Origin: an uncultured Actinomycetota bacterium
GTDB lineage: Bacteria; Actinomycetota; Actinomycetes; S36-B12; GCA-2699445
Direction of reading: 5' to 3'
Assembly (NCBI GenBank): GCA_963766005.1
Contig: CAVXYG010000012.1
Span: forward strand, 270,265-334,264
DNA: 64,000 nucleotides
Shown one piece after another: positions 1,756 through 39,559 of this stretch. Under the pieces are notes generated by a model that was not told the origin of the DNA, searched no databases, and was given only the letters and a program-made list of their open reading frames with translations. A program made the position numbers and the translations under genes. Each line of letters starts with the position of its first letter. Position 1 is the first letter of the stretch.

Positions 1756-2480
1756 AGGTGCAACCCGCATTCCACCTTGGTGCGGCCGCTCCAGCGACCA
1801 GATCGCTCGTCCTCGCCGTCGACCACCGGGCGGGTGCACGGCGAGCAGCCGATGGACCGATACCCCACCTGCCGCAACGGGTTCTCCATGATCGAGTACT
1901 GCTCGATGCAGGCGTCGATATCGGCATCGCTGAACGCCGCAATCGGGTTGATCTTGATCATGGCGTGCTTGGCGTCCCACGCAACCAGCGGAGTCTCCGC
2001 CCGACCGGCATGGTCGCCGCGCCGCAGCCCGGTCGCCCACGCGTCATAGCCGTGCAGCGCCGCATCCATCGGCGCGGTCTTGCGCATCGCGCAGCATGCG
2101 TCCGGATCGCGCTGCCACAGGTGCTCGCCGTGGCGGTGGTCCTGCTCGGCCACGCTGAGGTCCGGCTTCAAGGACCGGACGTTGACCGGGTACATCTGGG
2201 CCACGGCATCGCGCAGGCCGAGGGTCTCGGCGAAGTGGTAGCCCGTCTCGGCGAAGAGCAGGTCGACGCCCGGCACGGCTTTCGCCGCCAGGCACGCCAT
2301 GACGCCGTCGGAGAACGACACCGCCACGGCGAGCCGGTCCACGCCGAGCGTGTCGCCGAACCATTGCAGCAGGGCGACCGGGTCGGCGTCGTCGCCGAAG
2401 ACCGATTCGGCTTCCGAGACGATGGCGCGCAGCTGCGACTCCGGCCGCCGCGGCGGTGCGAGGTCGACGTCGATCGTCAT
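1752..2480 (-). CDS. cysH: adenylyl-/phosphoadenylyl-sulfate reductase (thioredoxin-dependent, Fe-S type)
   Basis: ORF 1752..2513. Start placed at MTIDVDL (2480). Has a C-terminal ECGLH motif plus the CC...CSPC cysteines typical of APS reductases. ATGA overlap with the end of the sulfite reductase. Confidence 0.9.
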   Translation of the reverse strand: MTIDVDLAPPRRPESQLRAIVSEAESVFGDDADPVALLQWFGDTLGVDRLAVAVSFSDGVMACLAAKAVPGVDLLFAETGYHFAETLGLRDAVAQMYPVNVRSLKPDLSVAEQDHRHGEHLWQRDPDACCAMRKTAPMDAALHGYDAWATGLRRGDHAGRAETPLVAWDAKHAMIKINPIAAFSDADIDACIEQYSIMENPLRQVGYRSIGCSPCTRPVVDGEDERSGRWSGRTKVECGLHL

Positions 2481-4133
2481 CGCAGGACCTCCTCGTCGGC
2501 CCGGGCGGTCCACTCGGCGAACGACTCGCTCTCCCGGCGCCCGTGCAGGTAGTGGCGCAGCACGCGCTCGACGTAGTCGGCCAGGTCATCCCCGGCAAGC
2601 CGGTGGCCTCGCAGCGAACTGCCGAACCCGCTGCGCTCGCCCAGCGAGCCGCCGAGGTGCACCTGGAACCCCTCGGCCTGCGTGTCGCCGTCTGGGCACC
2701 AGCACCCCTTTCAGGCCGATATCGGCGACCTGGAAGCGGGCGCAGGAGTTGGGGCAGCCGTTGACGTGGATCGCCAGGGGGGTGTCGAAGTCCGGCAGCC
2801 GCCGCTCCAGCTCTGCCACGAGATCGGCCGTGCGGCCCTTCGTCTCCGAGATCGCCAGCTTGCAGAACTCGATCCCGGTGCAGGCCATGGCCGACTGCCG
2901 AAACGCCGACGGCGCGGTCAGCAGACCCAGGTCCGCCAGCGCCAGCGACAAGGCGGAGGCGTCCGCTGCGGGCACGTCAAGGATGACGAACTTCTGGTAG
3001 GGCGTCAGGCGGATCCGGCCGCTGCCGTAGCGCTCGGCGAGATCGGCCATCTGCGCCAGGACCGTGCCGGAGATGCGCCCTACCGTCGGGGCGGCCCCGA
3101 CGTAGCAGCGGCCGTCGCGCTGCGGATGGATGCCGACGTGGTCGCGTGCGCCTGGTGCCGGCGCTGGCGGCTCCGGGCCGTCGATGAGCGCCCGACCCAG
3201 GTACTCCTCCTGCAGGACCTGCCGGAACTTCTCCGGCCCCCAGTCGGCCACCAGGAACTTCAGCCGCGCCTTCGTCCGCAGCCGCCGATAGCCGTAGTCG
3301 CGGAAGATCTTGATGACGCCCTCCCAGACGTCGGCGACCTCGTCGAGCGGAATCCATGCCCCGAGCCGCACGGCGAGCTTCGGATTGGTCGACAATCCGC
3401 CGCCCACCCAGAGGTCGAAGCCCGGGCCGTGCTCGGGGTGGACGGCCCCGATGAACGACACGTCGTTGACCTCGTGGGCCACGTCCTGGCGCGGGGAGCC
3501 GGAGACGGCCGTCTTGAACTTGCGCGGCAGGTTGGAGTACTCGGGGTTGCCGACGCTGCGCCGCACGATCTCCTCGATCGCCGGCGTGCCGTCGATGATC
3601 TCGTCGGCAGCGACACCGGCCACCGGCGAGCCCAGCACGATGCGGGGCGTGTCGCCGCACGCCTCGGTGCTGCCGAGTTGCACAGCCTCCAGCCGGCGCC
3701 AGATCTCGGGTACGTCCTCCACCCGGATCCAGTGCAGCTGGATGTTCTGACGGTCGGAGATGTCGGCGGTGTTCCGCGCGAACTCGGTGCTGATGCCCGC
3801 GATGACCCGGGCCTGGTCGCTGGACAGCGCCCCGCCGTCGCTGCGGACGCGCAGCATGAAGAACTCGTCGTCGAGTTCCTCCAACGGCAAGGAGGCCGTC
3901 TTGCCCCCGGGAATCCCGGGGCGGCGCTGGGTGTAGAGGCCCCACCAGCGCATCCGGCCGCGCAGGTCGTCGGCCGGGATGCTGGCGAAGCCCTGCTTGC
4001 TGTAGATGTCGATGATGCGCTCGCGGACGTTGAGCCCGTCGTCGGCCGCCTTCAACACCTCGTTGGCGTTGAGCGGCTCACGGCTGCCGAGGGCCCACTG
4101 GCCTTCGTCGCGTGGTCTGCGTGGGGGTGCCAT
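2477..4133 (-). CDS. sirA: ferredoxin-dependent sulfite reductase (SirA/NirA family), reading frame broken by one extra base near 2693
   Basis: Starts at MAPPRRPRDEG (ATG 4133, GAGGAG Shine-Dalgarno upstream). The body is in ORF 2586..4664, with siroheme/Fe-S motifs TGIEFCKLA and VNGCPNSCAR. The conserved C-terminus (EGFQVHLGGSLG...AEWTARADEEVLR) lies in a different frame, ORF 2477..2662. Span is 1657 nt = 3n+1. Confidence 0.85.
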
Positions 4134-4261
4134 GCGTTCGGATCTCCTCGTGCGGATTCCGGACGCGCGGTCGGGGTGGGCCTCCTGGCCAGCACGCAGC
4201 ACGCTGCCGGTCGGGGGCTTGCGCCCTGGCCGCGTGTCCTGTGGGTCGTGGGGACGTGCGG

Positions 4262-4345
4262 TCAGGCGCAACAACACATGTCGGCGCACATGCAGCACGG
4301 CATGCAACGGCTCTCGGCCGGCATATCCATCCCGCGCGACGACAT
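4262..4345 (-). CDS. candidate Cys/Met-rich leader peptide (27 aa) upstream of sirA
   Basis: Reads ATG TCG TCG CGC GGG ATG GAT ATG CCG GCC GAG AGC CGT TGC ATG CCG TGC TGC ATG TGC GCC GAC ATG TGT TGT TGC GCC TGA = MSSRGMDMPAESRCMPCCMCADMCCCA. That is 7 Cys and 6 Met. It is the tail of track ORF 4262..4867. Third codon positions are mostly G/C. The stop lies 128 nt before the sirA ATG. Confidence 0.5.
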   Translation of the reverse strand: MSSRGMDMPAESRCMPCCMCADMCCCA

Positions 4346-4352
4346 GCGTAGG

Positions 4353-4358
4353 ACTGTA
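4353..4358 (-). promoter_or_regulatory. candidate -10 hexamer TACAGT positioned for a leaderless transcript starting at the uORF ATG
   Basis: Minus strand reads ...gcTACAGTcctacgcATG. It fits the TANNNT form, with 7 nt between the hexamer and the A of ATG (4345). There is no Shine-Dalgarno before this ATG. Confidence 0.35.
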
Positions 4359-4949
4359 GCGCATGTCGTCGCGCACGGCGCCACCGATGGTGCTCGCGGC
4401 CGGTTGGATGAGCGGATTGTCCGCGTCCGTCGATGCTCGGTGCTGCGCCCATGGGACTGGCGAGCGATGCGCCGTCGGGCTCCTGCGCCCGGCCGGTCGA
4501 GCGCAGGAGCGGCGGGTTGGCGCACGCCCCCGGGTCGAACCCCCGCGCTGGCCCGGCACAGCGGCGGTGCTGCTGGGGCTGCGGCGATGGCGCAGGACCG
4601 CGCAGCGGCGGCAGCAGCGTCGAGGCGTTGGCCAGCCGGGCGCGTGCCCGTCGGGCCGGAGCAATGACCAACCGGTGTGCCGGTGGTGGAATCGCGGCCG
4701 TCCGCCGGCAGGGGGGACGCCACCCGGCGGTCTCGCGGGTGACAGCGCGCCAGGCGGCGATCGAGCGCTGGCCGCCCCGCGGTTCGAGGACGCCAGGTGC
4801 GCTCGCGGCGGTCGGGATCGCGGGGACAGGCCGGCGTCGTGCGGGTGCAGGCGCGGGACAACCCCACGAGCGAGGTCGCGCCTCGCAGCCTTGCGGACCG
4901 GGCAGCGATGCCGGGTCGGACCTGGGGCGGTCCCGGCGGTACTGCTCCG

Positions 4950-5681
4950 CTAGGCAGCCGGGTAGGCCGCGGTCGCGATGGCGGCGGAGTAGATCCGGTA
5001 GCCGCGGCTGTTCAGGTGCAATCCGTCGCCTGCGTACAGCTCGGGACGGACGCGACCGTCTGCGTCGAGCAGTTCCTTCCACACATCCACGAAGGCCACG
5101 TTCGGATCGTCCGCGGCGAGCGCGGCGAATTGCTCGTTCAGGGACTCGTAGCGGTCGCGCAGGAACCAGCGCTGCAGGCTCGGCTTGGCCGCGATGATCG
5201 CCACCGTCGTGCCGGGATGGTCCCGGGCAATCGCGGCAAGCAGCCGCTCGGTGTCGGCGATGACCTCGGCTGGGGCCCGGCCGCGGGCGACGTCGTTGTC
5301 CCCGGATCCGATGTAGACCTGGTCGGGGGCGAAGCGGCCGATGAGGCCGGGGTAGTGGGCAAGCAGCTGGTCCATCGTGGATCCGCCGAATCCGGTGTTC
5401 ACGACCTGGGCGTCGGGGAAGGCGGTGTCGCTGCTGTCCCACAGCCGGACCGTGGAACTGCCGGTGATGACGACGACTTCGGCGCCCGGCTCGCGCACGA
5501 ACGGTTCGGCTGACAGCGCTGCCGCCTCCGCCGCAACGCCGCCGCCGCGACCGGCCACCACCGTCGAGGCTCCGCAGATGAGTGCCGCCCCTGCCAGCAG
5601 CGCCGTCACCGCGGCGAGGAAGCGGAGCACGTGCGGCACGGCAGCCCCCCTACGGTTCAATAACGAATCGGTAACGGTCAC
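4950..5681 (-). CDS. secreted SGNH/GDSL-family hydrolase
   Basis: ORF 243 aa. Hydrophobic N-terminal segment, then ITGSSTV (block I Ser), NTGFGGST, YIGSGDND and a C-terminal DGLHLN block. Confidence 0.8.
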   Translation of the reverse strand: MTVTDSLLNRRGAAVPHVLRFLAAVTALLAGAALICGASTVVAGRGGGVAAEAAALSAEPFVREPGAEVVVITGSSTVRLWDSSDTAFPDAQVVNTGFGGSTMDQLLAHYPGLIGRFAPDQVYIGSGDNDVARGRAPAEVIADTERLLAAIARDHPGTTVAIIAAKPSLQRWFLRDRYESLNEQFAALAADDPNVAFVDVWKELLDADGRVRPELYAGDGLHLNSRGYRIYSAAIATAAYPAA

Positions 5682-39047: not shown

Positions 39048-39091
39048 CTGCGCACCCACTGCGCCTCTGGTCTTCTGCGTGGAGTGCGCAG
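39048..39091 (+). terminator. possible stem-loop downstream of 38295..38981
   Basis: CTGCGCACCCAC (39048-39059) pairs with GTGGAGTGCGCAG (39079-39091), 12 of 13 positions. No U-tract. Confidence 0.25.
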
Positions 39092-39559
39092 AGTCCCGGT
39101 TGAGGTGCCAGCAGCGCGCTGTCCGGCACACGCTGCAGCTGCCAGGTGCTCGTACCTCGCGATTGCGGCTGTGTGCTGCTGCAACTGCTGACACGGTCCG
39201 AGGCCGAATCGGCAGTGCTTCTGCGGCCAGCACGATGCCGGCAGCCGCCGGTCAGGCAGGGGTGTCGCACAGCAACCGGGCGCCGGAGGCCCGACCAGCA
39301 TAGACATCGGCTGTGGCTTCCCAAGCCGGCTCGAACCCTCGGATTCGCTACGAGGGCAACTGCAGACCGCCAGGTCGGCCACCCGGCGAGGCGGTCGGCT
39401 ACGCATCGGCCCCACCACCGATGCCAGGAGATGCACGCCGGAGCGAACCGCAAGGCTCACGGGGATCGAGGGGCTGTCCCGACCCGCAGATGTCGCTCGC
39501 CGACGACAAGTCGGAAGTGGGACCAAGCCGCCGTCACTCCCCTGCAGCGCGCACCGGCC

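Follow-up and report, generated by a model that had tools for sequence, protein, structure and literature searches.

A putatively leaderless, cysteine- and methionine-rich short open reading frame ahead of sirA in an uncultured actinomycete: a probable cysteine-responsive leader peptide gene

The locus of interest lies in a 64,000-nt stretch of DNA from an uncultured Actinomycetota bacterium (GenBank assembly GCA_963766005.1, contig CAVXYG010000012.1, positions 270,265 to 334,264 of the forward strand; hereafter the window, numbered from its first base). Unless stated otherwise, all features described below are on the minus strand. One end of the window carries a four-gene unit for sulfite reduction and siroheme supply: (i) sirA, the first gene of the operon, encoding a ferredoxin-type sulfite reductase (2477-4133; Pfam NIR_SIR and NIR_SIR_ferr), (ii) cysH, encoding a phosphoadenosine/adenosine phosphosulfate (PAPS/APS) reductase (1752-2513; Pfam PAPS_reduct, E 1.8e-37), (iii) a cysG-like siroheme synthase gene (457-1770, with the start at 1770 or 1755; Pfam NAD_binding_7 and TP_methylase), the product of which combines, by its Pfam domains, a precorrin-2 dehydrogenase and a uroporphyrinogen-III methyltransferase, and (iv) a cbiX/sirB-like sirohydrochlorin ferrochelatase gene, identified by translation and partial at the window edge (1-456; Pfam CbiX, E 2.8e-10). 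The sirA gene has its own Shine-Dalgarno (SD) sequence, GAGGAG, at 4144-4149. Upstream of it is a 27-codon short open reading frame (sORF; 4262-4345, stop codon included) with the translation MSSRGMDMPAESRCMPCCMCADMCCCA*; the end of its stop codon at 4262 and the sirA ATG at 4133 are separated by 128 nt. An earlier reading of this DNA (hereafter, the sequence-only reading) had proposed that the sORF regulates the sirA-cysH-cysG-cbiX unit in response to cysteine and methionine. Its description of the sORF, the gap, the sirA SD, and the operon is borne out by the sequence, the translations, and the Pfam domains.

Cys (7) and Met (6) together account for 13 of the 27 encoded residues (48%). Consecutive Cys codons occur as CC (codons 17-18) and as CCC (codons 24-26), the latter run being one codon ahead of the stop. 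The codons proposed to do the sensing form a Met/Cys block of three 12-nt units (4268-4303): ATGCCGTGCTGC (ATG-CCG-TGC-TGC, MPCC; 4303-4292), ATGTGCGCCGAC (ATG-TGC-GCC-GAC, MCAD; 4291-4280), and ATGTGTTGTTGC (ATG-TGT-TGT-TGC, MCCC; 4279-4268). Cys codons are, as had been supposed, rare in the surroundings: they make up 1.3% of codons in the four neighbouring genes, where all 19 are TGC and TGT never occurs. Among 127,840 27-codon windows (six frames, the whole 64 kb), every one with at least nine Cys plus Met overlaps the sORF, and a CCC run at the end is seen in 2 of 1,586 stop-to-stop segments. A count of seven Cys is not in itself unique, since a few off-frame stretches of real genes reach 7-8 Cys. 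The earlier claim that the density is unlikely to be chance therefore stands for the combination of Cys and Met, which is unique in the window, and not for the Cys count. The frame itself is open as far as 4867, giving a 201-codon ORF (4262-4867) that ends in the Cys tail. This longer protein was considered and rejected, as the DNA upstream of the ATG shows neither a third-position GC signal nor a Pfam match; hence the short ORF was taken as the unit.

The sequence upstream of the ATG at 4345 reads GCGC-TACAGT-CCTACGC, in which the -10-like hexamer TACAGT (4353-4358) is followed by a 7-nt spacer (CCTACGC), and no purine-rich SD is present ahead of the ATG. The position of TACAGT 7 nt before the ATG places the putative transcription start at or beside the ATG, which would make the mRNA leaderless. 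A scan with the sigma-70 promoter consensus returned nothing, a result that says little about promoters in an actinomycete with a GC content of 70% (as measured for the window).

The comparison of orthologous leaders recommended by the sequence-only reading was run by scanning 160 related loci (designated here by L and a number) over the 400-450 nt preceding sirA, with no prior assumption about an ORF. A Cys/Met-rich ORF was found upstream of sirA in all nine of the closest relatives (74-83% SirA identity), in each with a Cys run one or two codons from the stop, and these sORFs terminate 100-136 nt ahead of the inferred sirA start codon. The closest SirA, at 83% identity, is encoded on metagenome contig L081, where the sORF peptide is MSVHVTAAKAECRRMRCCMCMAMCCCA. 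The corresponding peptides are VHSATITSVMPMAGSAMCCCMCCCA in L082, MRSATTT(A/S)PVMCCCMCCSA in L001 and L003, MHSATVTSPVMPMAPVVMCCCMCCCA in L002, MPNTMRCMCMCSCCRA in L084, and, for the C-terminal portions, ..VACAMCCRCCA in L004 and ..RCCMCCCS in L083. The unit is repeated as MCCCMCCCA in L001-L003 and L082, and the sORF also occurs in more distant sirA loci. The string ATGTGTTGTTGCGCCTGA, which includes window positions 4268-4279, is nearly identical throughout the clade. For the 15 sORF-bearing loci considered below, the start was chosen as the in-frame ATG or GTG yielding an ORF of 16-30 codons. A [T/C]AnnnT hexamer ends 6-8 nt ahead of this start in 14 of the 15, compared with a background of 3.3% of ATG/GTG triplets, so that the TACAGT geometry singled out earlier is a shared one. 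Several loci additionally carry a TGGACA- or TTGACG-like (i.e., -35-like) hexamer 17 nt further upstream of the -10 hexamer.

A pairwise comparison of the window with L081 shows what is kept. Similarity starts abruptly about 20 nt before the ATG and continues through the sORF and the leader into sirA, while the DNA further upstream and the upstream gene are unrelated. Almost every codon differs in the N-terminal halves of the two peptides. Across the last 14 codons, by contrast, every Met codon and nearly every Cys codon is shared (Cys14 is Arg in L081), the Cys codons showing two synonymous TGT/TGC exchanges; of the five remaining codons, four are different. Selection for codon identity would be expected to leave such a pattern. 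Codon usage was counted across the 15 sORFs; as the loci are related, the counts are descriptive. TGT and TGC are used 44:44 in the sORFs, as against 8:76 in the sirA genes next to them. TGT, the Cys codon read by wobble, amounts to half of the sORF Cys codons versus 10% in sirA and is thus enriched in the proposed sensing run. Non-start Met makes up 9.6% of sORF codons versus 0.8% in SirA, a twelvefold difference. Together, the comparisons indicate that the sORF is real and conserved rather than a product of chance. A functionless open frame in GC-rich intergenic DNA could draw on the long open frames that high-GC DNA provides and on the off-frame stretches of 7-8 Cys elsewhere in the window. 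Against this, no other place in the window reaches nine Cys plus Met, and the ORF, its start geometry, and its stop context are retained in every close relative whereas the upstream flank is not. Judged from the sequence comparison, the conservation data already contradict a chance origin, the probability of which we regard as negligible; the case is carried by the Cys and Met combination and, above all, by conservation.

Elements of this kind have been described before. Seliverstov et al. (2005; PMC1262725) predicted Cys-run leader peptides, without terminators, ahead of cys operons in Mycobacterium and Propionibacterium. Shell et al. (2015; PMC4633059) reported that Cys-run leader peptides are translated from leaderless mRNAs, and Canestrari et al. 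(2020; 10.1101/834739) characterized one of them, Ms5788A, as a Cys-responsive translational attenuator in M. smegmatis: a ribosome stalled in the Cys run keeps an RNA duplex from forming over the SD of the following gene. The same study lists Ms4527A (VTSARNSITGSLVARRHVDKRVCSCCCLP; Table S1), which lies upstream of MSMEG_4527/Rv2391 (sirA) and is kept in nearly all of the 41 mycobacterial species examined; behind it, the Ms4527 (SirA) protein is detectable only in low cysteine (10.1101/834739). Ribosomes stall at the Cys codons of the M. tuberculosis copy, Rv2391A, under tRNA-Cys depletion (PMC13096801). The sequence-only reading was thus right in pointing to Cys-responsive leaderless polycysteine sORFs in mycobacteria, one of which occupies the same locus.

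The window sORF and Ms4527A/Rv2391A resemble each other in several respects. Each lies directly upstream of, and co-oriented with, orthologous sirA-cysH. Ms4527A and the window sORF are of one size class (29 and 27 codons), lack an SD, have an inferred start at the mRNA 5' end, carry a three-Cys run one or two codons from the stop, and are followed by a leader of ~100-200 nt before sirA. They differ in that the LVARRHVD motif is found in Ms4527A only, in that the window peptide contains 7 Cys and five internal Met where Ms4527A contains 4 Cys and no internal Met, and in their hosts, that of the window being an uncultured, non-mycobacterial actinomycete. Ms5788A is leaderless, also ends in a Cys run, and attenuates translation; an SD-burying hairpin is predicted in the window leader as well, and no terminator is found there. 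Unlike the window sORF, Ms5788A has eight consecutive Cys at its very end and belongs to the operon at the cysA2 locus. A further difference is one of distance: since the window stop is 128 nt from sirA, an effect on the SD would require a relay (P1, B:C, and P3, the predicted helices described next) in place of the blocking of an SD-sequestering structure demonstrated for Ms5788A. The sORF is very probably a ribosome-stalling sensor of cysteine supply of the kind known from mycobacteria. The core of the interpretation—a leaderless polycysteine, Cys-responsive attenuator of the sirA operon—is well supported by the comparison and the literature.

Three helices are predicted in the leader RNA. 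The first, hairpin P1 (4219-4271; -25.0 kcal/mol), spans the stop codon: one arm consists of UUGCGCCUG (the 3' end of the sORF and the stop) and CCGC..GUCC, paired with GGAC..GCGG and CAGGGCGCAA. A hairpin over the stop codon, built from differing arm sequences, is predicted in the close homologues as well; among the nine closest leaders, z is -0.4 in L004 and between -1.6 and -2.9 in the other eight. Directly 3' of the stop is a C-rich, G-poor tract (4240-4261; 59% C, 14% G), which is the 5' arm of upper P1 (element A). Element B, GGACACGCGG (4230-4239), can pair either with this tract or with element C, CCGCGCGUCC (4161-4170). The B:C duplex (-18.2 kcal/mol in the window) is the only consensus helix picked by RNAalifold from 11 leaders, and its energies in the nine closest leaders range from -14.6 to -19.8 kcal/mol (z -1.6 to -3.6). 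Element C can alternatively serve as the 5' arm of the SD hairpin, P3 (4130-4170; predicted -19.6 kcal/mol), a structure taking in the SD core, the spacer, and the UG of the sirA AUG; local folding pairs half or more of the SD core in every one of the 15 leaders. Since the C side of B:C overlaps the P3 5' arm, B:C and P3 are, as modelled, mutually exclusive. No intrinsic terminator (GC hairpin plus U run) was found on either strand between 4050 and 5000, which rules out a classical trpL-type terminator. A scan of 3800-5000 against Rfam (E up to 10) gave chance-level matches only, far below the gathering scores, with no match to a sulfur-metabolite riboswitch such as those for S-adenosylmethionine (SAM).

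The specific helices proposed by the sequence-only reading were superseded: the conserved elements are instead the stop-codon hairpin, the B:C helix, and the SD hairpin. GGCCAG (4231-4226) and CTGGCC (4192-4187) are both present, but their pairing appears in no predicted fold and is neither conserved nor favoured, while the GGGC-GCAA-GCCC hairpin is predicted only in folds in which the P1 5' arm is masked. A separate pairing is predicted at the other end of the transcript. The 5'-terminal 18 nt of the presumed leaderless mRNA, which include the start codon, can form a helix with the Met/Cys block (window 4345-4280), at -15.6 to -20.9 kcal/mol (z -1.3 to -3.0) in the window, L081, L082, L001-L003, and L084. 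It is made by different sequences in different homologues and is absent in distant members; as modelled, it could modulate leaderless initiation.

The predicted elements are consistent with an attenuator of four segments in which the final hairpin, instead of terminating transcription, would conceal an SD. Transcription would start at or next to the ATG, producing a leaderless mRNA, and ribosomes would translate the Cys codons, with their interleaved Met codons, in the last 14 codons. With charged tRNA-Cys in good supply, the ribosome would complete the sORF and leave, allowing P1 (4271-4219) to close over the stop codon; element C (4170-4161) would then be free, P3 would close, and sirA would be poorly translated, its SD and AUG being buried. 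When charged tRNA-Cys is scarce, the ribosome would stall on the terminal Cys codons and occupy the P1 5' arm. Element B (4239-4230) would consequently be free at the time that C is made, B:C would replace P3, the SD would be exposed, and sulfite reduction and siroheme synthesis would rise. Such a switch is plausible if the competing helices are chosen between co-transcriptionally, given that B is transcribed ahead of C, and C ahead of the SD. Classical leader-peptide transcription attenuators offer a formal parallel: like trpL and hisL of E. coli and the actinobacterial trp and ilvB leaders, the window has a short ORF rich in codons for the end product, and, as in the trpL type, four RNA segments can pair as 1:2 and 3:4, or as 2:3. 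The window departs from that type in having no GC hairpin with a U run—its 3:4 segment is the predicted SD/AUG hairpin—and no SD for the leader ORF. As a whole, the reading of the sORF as the leader-peptide gene of the sirA-cysH-cysG-cbiX operon, acting through a four-segment translational switch, seems to us likely. The transcription start, the translation of the sORF, the stalling, and the output under control (translation or Rho-dependent termination) are all inferred.

A number of results weigh against this interpretation, most of them concerning the RNA. Equilibrium folding was performed with the ribosome footprint masked at each Cys codon, at the stop, and at growing distances beyond the stop; the effect on the SD was small and inconsistent, and nil for the window. 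Masking the whole P1 5' arm brought up B:C in five of eight folds (L081, L082, L001, L002, and L083) and not in those of the window, L004, and L084. Window P3 stays closed under the same mask, with SD accessibility moving only from 0.29 to 0.34; the 15-leader average goes no higher than 0.46, from 0.38 without the mask. As SD opening at equilibrium is weak, the switch is not claimed as demonstrated. The energies of A:B and of P3 are no better than those of shuffled sequences. In the folding and covariation check proposed by the sequence-only reading, the B:C consensus helix showed almost no covariation, B and C both being near-invariant in the 11-leader alignment. Geometry is also restrictive. 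With the last Cys codon in its A site, a ribosome extends only ~6 nt beyond the first base of the stop, so that it would cover or open the lower P1 stem but not all of element A; the more upstream Cys and Met codons (14-20) lie at too great a distance from P1 for stalling there to affect it. The regulated gene itself is frameshifted in this assembly. In tblastn with the L081 SirA, residues 1-481 align in one frame (4133-2694) and residues 476-551 in the next (2710-2480), placing the break near 2694; an extra A in GTGCCC-A-GACGGC explains it, and a related metagenome contig (86% identical) has one base fewer at 2690. Either the assembly is in error here or the regulated gene carries a genuine frameshift. 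Finally, the window peptide matched none of the curated leader-peptide models NF042936, NF042933, and NF042934, and a profile comparison (hhalign) of the window-clade peptides with the RRHVDL-type sORF peptides discussed below was null, at 2% probability.

The weakness of SD opening at equilibrium is one of several observations that would suit a different output from the same sensor, namely Rho-dependent premature termination rather than control of sirA translation initiation. Under such a model, normal termination at the sORF stop would expose the C-rich post-stop RNA to Rho, whereas a stalled ribosome would cover or abut the site and permit read-through, as at tnaC of E. coli. A C-rich, G-poor tract follows the stop directly in 15 of 15 leaders (pooled, 61% C and 13% G, versus 39% C and 34% G in the remaining leader), and the absence of an intrinsic terminator between 4050 and 5000 points the same way. 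Rho was suggested for actinobacterial Cys leader peptides by Seliverstov et al. (2005; PMC1262725) on the grounds that terminators are absent, and Canestrari et al. (10.1101/834739) describe the mechanism as undetermined for all loci except Ms5788A. The window also shares with tnaC regulatory codons at the end of the leader ORF and a C-rich, G-poor stretch directly after the stop, although what is sensed at tnaC is free tryptophan, through the nascent peptide, and not the charging of a tRNA as modelled here. The post-stop composition would make Rho loading possible but does not show it: at 11-30 nt the tract is short, and it doubles as the 5' arm of the predicted stable P1, a hairpin that would hide it. 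Moreover, termination by Rho would give no role to the conserved B:C and C:SD alternatives, and the sole dissected member of the class, Ms5788A, is translational. We consider a Rho-dependent output rather unlikely and take the translational switch, with the co-transcriptional choice between B:C and P3, as the preferred reading.

The relationship of the window sORF to other sirA leader peptides was approached from the curated NCBIfam models, which comprise NF042936 (the Ms4527A family), NF042933 (the Ms5788A family), and NF042934 ('cis_reg_atten', putative leader peptide). A lenient scan revealed a wide family of sORFs of ~27 codons ahead of sirA in Streptomyces and many other actinobacterial loci, e.g., M..G.ALVSRRHVDLGRMSSA[I/M]CPAC, with an LVxRRHVDLxR core in common with Ms4527A and C-terminal Cys codons. 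These RRHVDL-type sORFs are positioned ~95-290 nt upstream of the sirA alignment start, and occur at Streptomyces loci L016, L033, L038, L047, L057, L060, L073, L078, L096, and L147, and at loci L110, L119, L135, L136, L143, L145, L086, L005, and L120. Three of four tested RRHVDL-type peptides score above the NF042934 cut-off: L086, L005, and a Streptomyces peptide pass, and L110 falls below it (21.3 bits). The window, L081, and L002 peptides gave nothing against NF042936 or NF042934 at E up to 10. Sequence homology of the window peptide to the RRHVDL-type peptides was thus detected neither by the NCBIfam searches nor by hhalign. What connects the two is the same downstream gene, the length of 27 codons in many lineages, the leaderless geometry, and L086 (..LVTRRHVDLGRLASAMCCCA), which bears both an RRHVDL-type core and the AMCCCA tail of the window clade; the link is thus one of position rather than of sequence. 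Accordingly, the window ORF is filed in the functional class rather than in the curated families: it has at least two consecutive Cys near its C-terminus, is the first cistron of a sulfur operon, and holds a conserved orthologous position. The sequence comparison suggests that the window clade carries a derived sirA leader peptide in which the RRHVDL core was lost and the Met-Cys(-Cys-Cys) unit multiplied.

The peptides recognised by NF042934 resemble that of the window in their locus, their length (27 codons in many lineages), their C-terminal Cys codons, and their leaderless -10 geometry, e.g., CACGCT-6-ATG in Streptomyces. They differ from it in often having two Cys only and in the RRHVDL core, which is under selection at the amino-acid level: the core codons vary at synonymous third positions, implying selection on the peptide itself, and this hints at a nascent-peptide role in the RRHVDL family. 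The same conservation of residues through synonymous codon changes lends some weight to a further explanation, in which the peptide product is itself functional—a small Cys/Met-rich, metal- or redox-active peptide encoded ahead of sirA by happenstance. Cys and Met are both soft-metal ligands, and the composition is conserved in the window clade. Such a function sits poorly, however, with an N-terminal half that is not conserved even between the two closest relatives, with a length and Cys spacing that vary (16 to 30 codons), and with published Cys-rich leader peptides being considered unstable. In addition, the location ahead of sirA, the Cys run beside the stop, and the conservation of the leader RNA all typify a leader that acts in cis. 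We regard a functional peptide product as very improbable. Some of the Streptomyces loci (L016, L033, L038, L047, L073, and L096) carry repeated GTCCAC / TGGAC motifs, e.g., GTCCACATTTTGGATGAAGGTGGAC, ~40-65 nt upstream of the sORF ATG and overlapping the -35 region. These repeats may serve as the operator of a transcription factor, adding a layer of control to that of the leader peptide.

A separate question is whether a leader that senses cysteine also senses methionine. The rationale for dual sensing is that sulfide feeds the synthesis of both amino acids: scarcity of charged elongator tRNA-Met would stall ribosomes at the interleaved AUGs and derepress the operon just as scarcity of charged tRNA-Cys would, such that one stalling sensor in the window clade would report on both. 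The excess of non-start Met codons over SirA described above (9.6% versus 0.8%) is in favour, as is the retention of Met15, Met19, and Met23 between the window and L081 while neighbouring codons differ, and a Met codon stands directly ahead of the terminal Cys run in nearly all of the non-mycobacterial members seen. A literature search on Met-codon leader peptides in sulfur regulation found no relevant paper. To our knowledge, and in the literature searched, no leader peptide sensing methionine, or sensing two amino acids of one pathway branch point, has been described. The Met codon is, on the other hand, part of the duplicated 12-nt unit (Met-Cys-Cys-Cys), of which relatives have two clean copies (MCCCMCCCA), so the extra Met codons may simply have come along with the Cys codons. 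The equivalent position varies between Met and Ile in Streptomyces, Ms4527A of M. smegmatis is without internal Met, and L081 does not share the two N-terminal Met codons of the window. Since Met is encoded by AUG alone, selection on the codon is inseparable from selection on the RNA or peptide. AUG beside UGC also creates GCAU, which is able to pair with the AUGC at the mRNA 5' end. Met15 and Met19 also lie too far upstream for a ribosome stalled there to touch P1. On balance, sensing of both amino acids is a tentative idea that we hold to be rather doubtful. If it were true, sulfide production would be tuned to the two amino acids that consume sulfide, and if the conserved Met codons prove functional, this would be the first methionine-responsive leader peptide.

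The surroundings of the leader offer some further observations. The next gene upstream of the sORF encodes a GDSL lipase, with its stop at 4950. The intervening 600 nt (4346-4950; ~78% GC) are unusually long for an intergenic spacer; neither a codon-position signal nor a Pfam match was found in its two long minus-strand frames, and it has no similarity to the DNA upstream of the L081 sORF. The other ORF in the window ending with a CCC run (39084-39191, plus strand; ..IAAVCCCNC*) is situated in lower-GC DNA between convergent genes, has no gene downstream on its own strand, and is probably chance. The best SirA matches among genomes, at 75-79% identity, come from metagenome-assembled genomes labelled Nanopelagicales, Micrococcales, or Actinomycetota. 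Near-identical fragments of the locus occur at very low depth in sediment and freshwater metagenomes; the sequencing runs holding the locus are low-depth metagenomic DNA only, with no matching RNA run.

The element characterized here belongs to a kind already described in mycobacteria and does not represent a new principle. It is, rather, a member that had not been recognised before, in a lineage where the kind had not been noted. The window-type form is missed by the current curated models—neither NF042934 nor NF042936 recognises the ORF—and gene callers will miss it too. The leader supplies a concrete four-segment model (P1, B:C, and P3, as predicted) for a sirA-type attenuator. If, as is very probable, the sORF acts as described, ribosome-mediated cysteine sensing at the entry to sulfite reduction would extend beyond the mycobacteria, to uncultured actinomycetes of freshwater and sediment.

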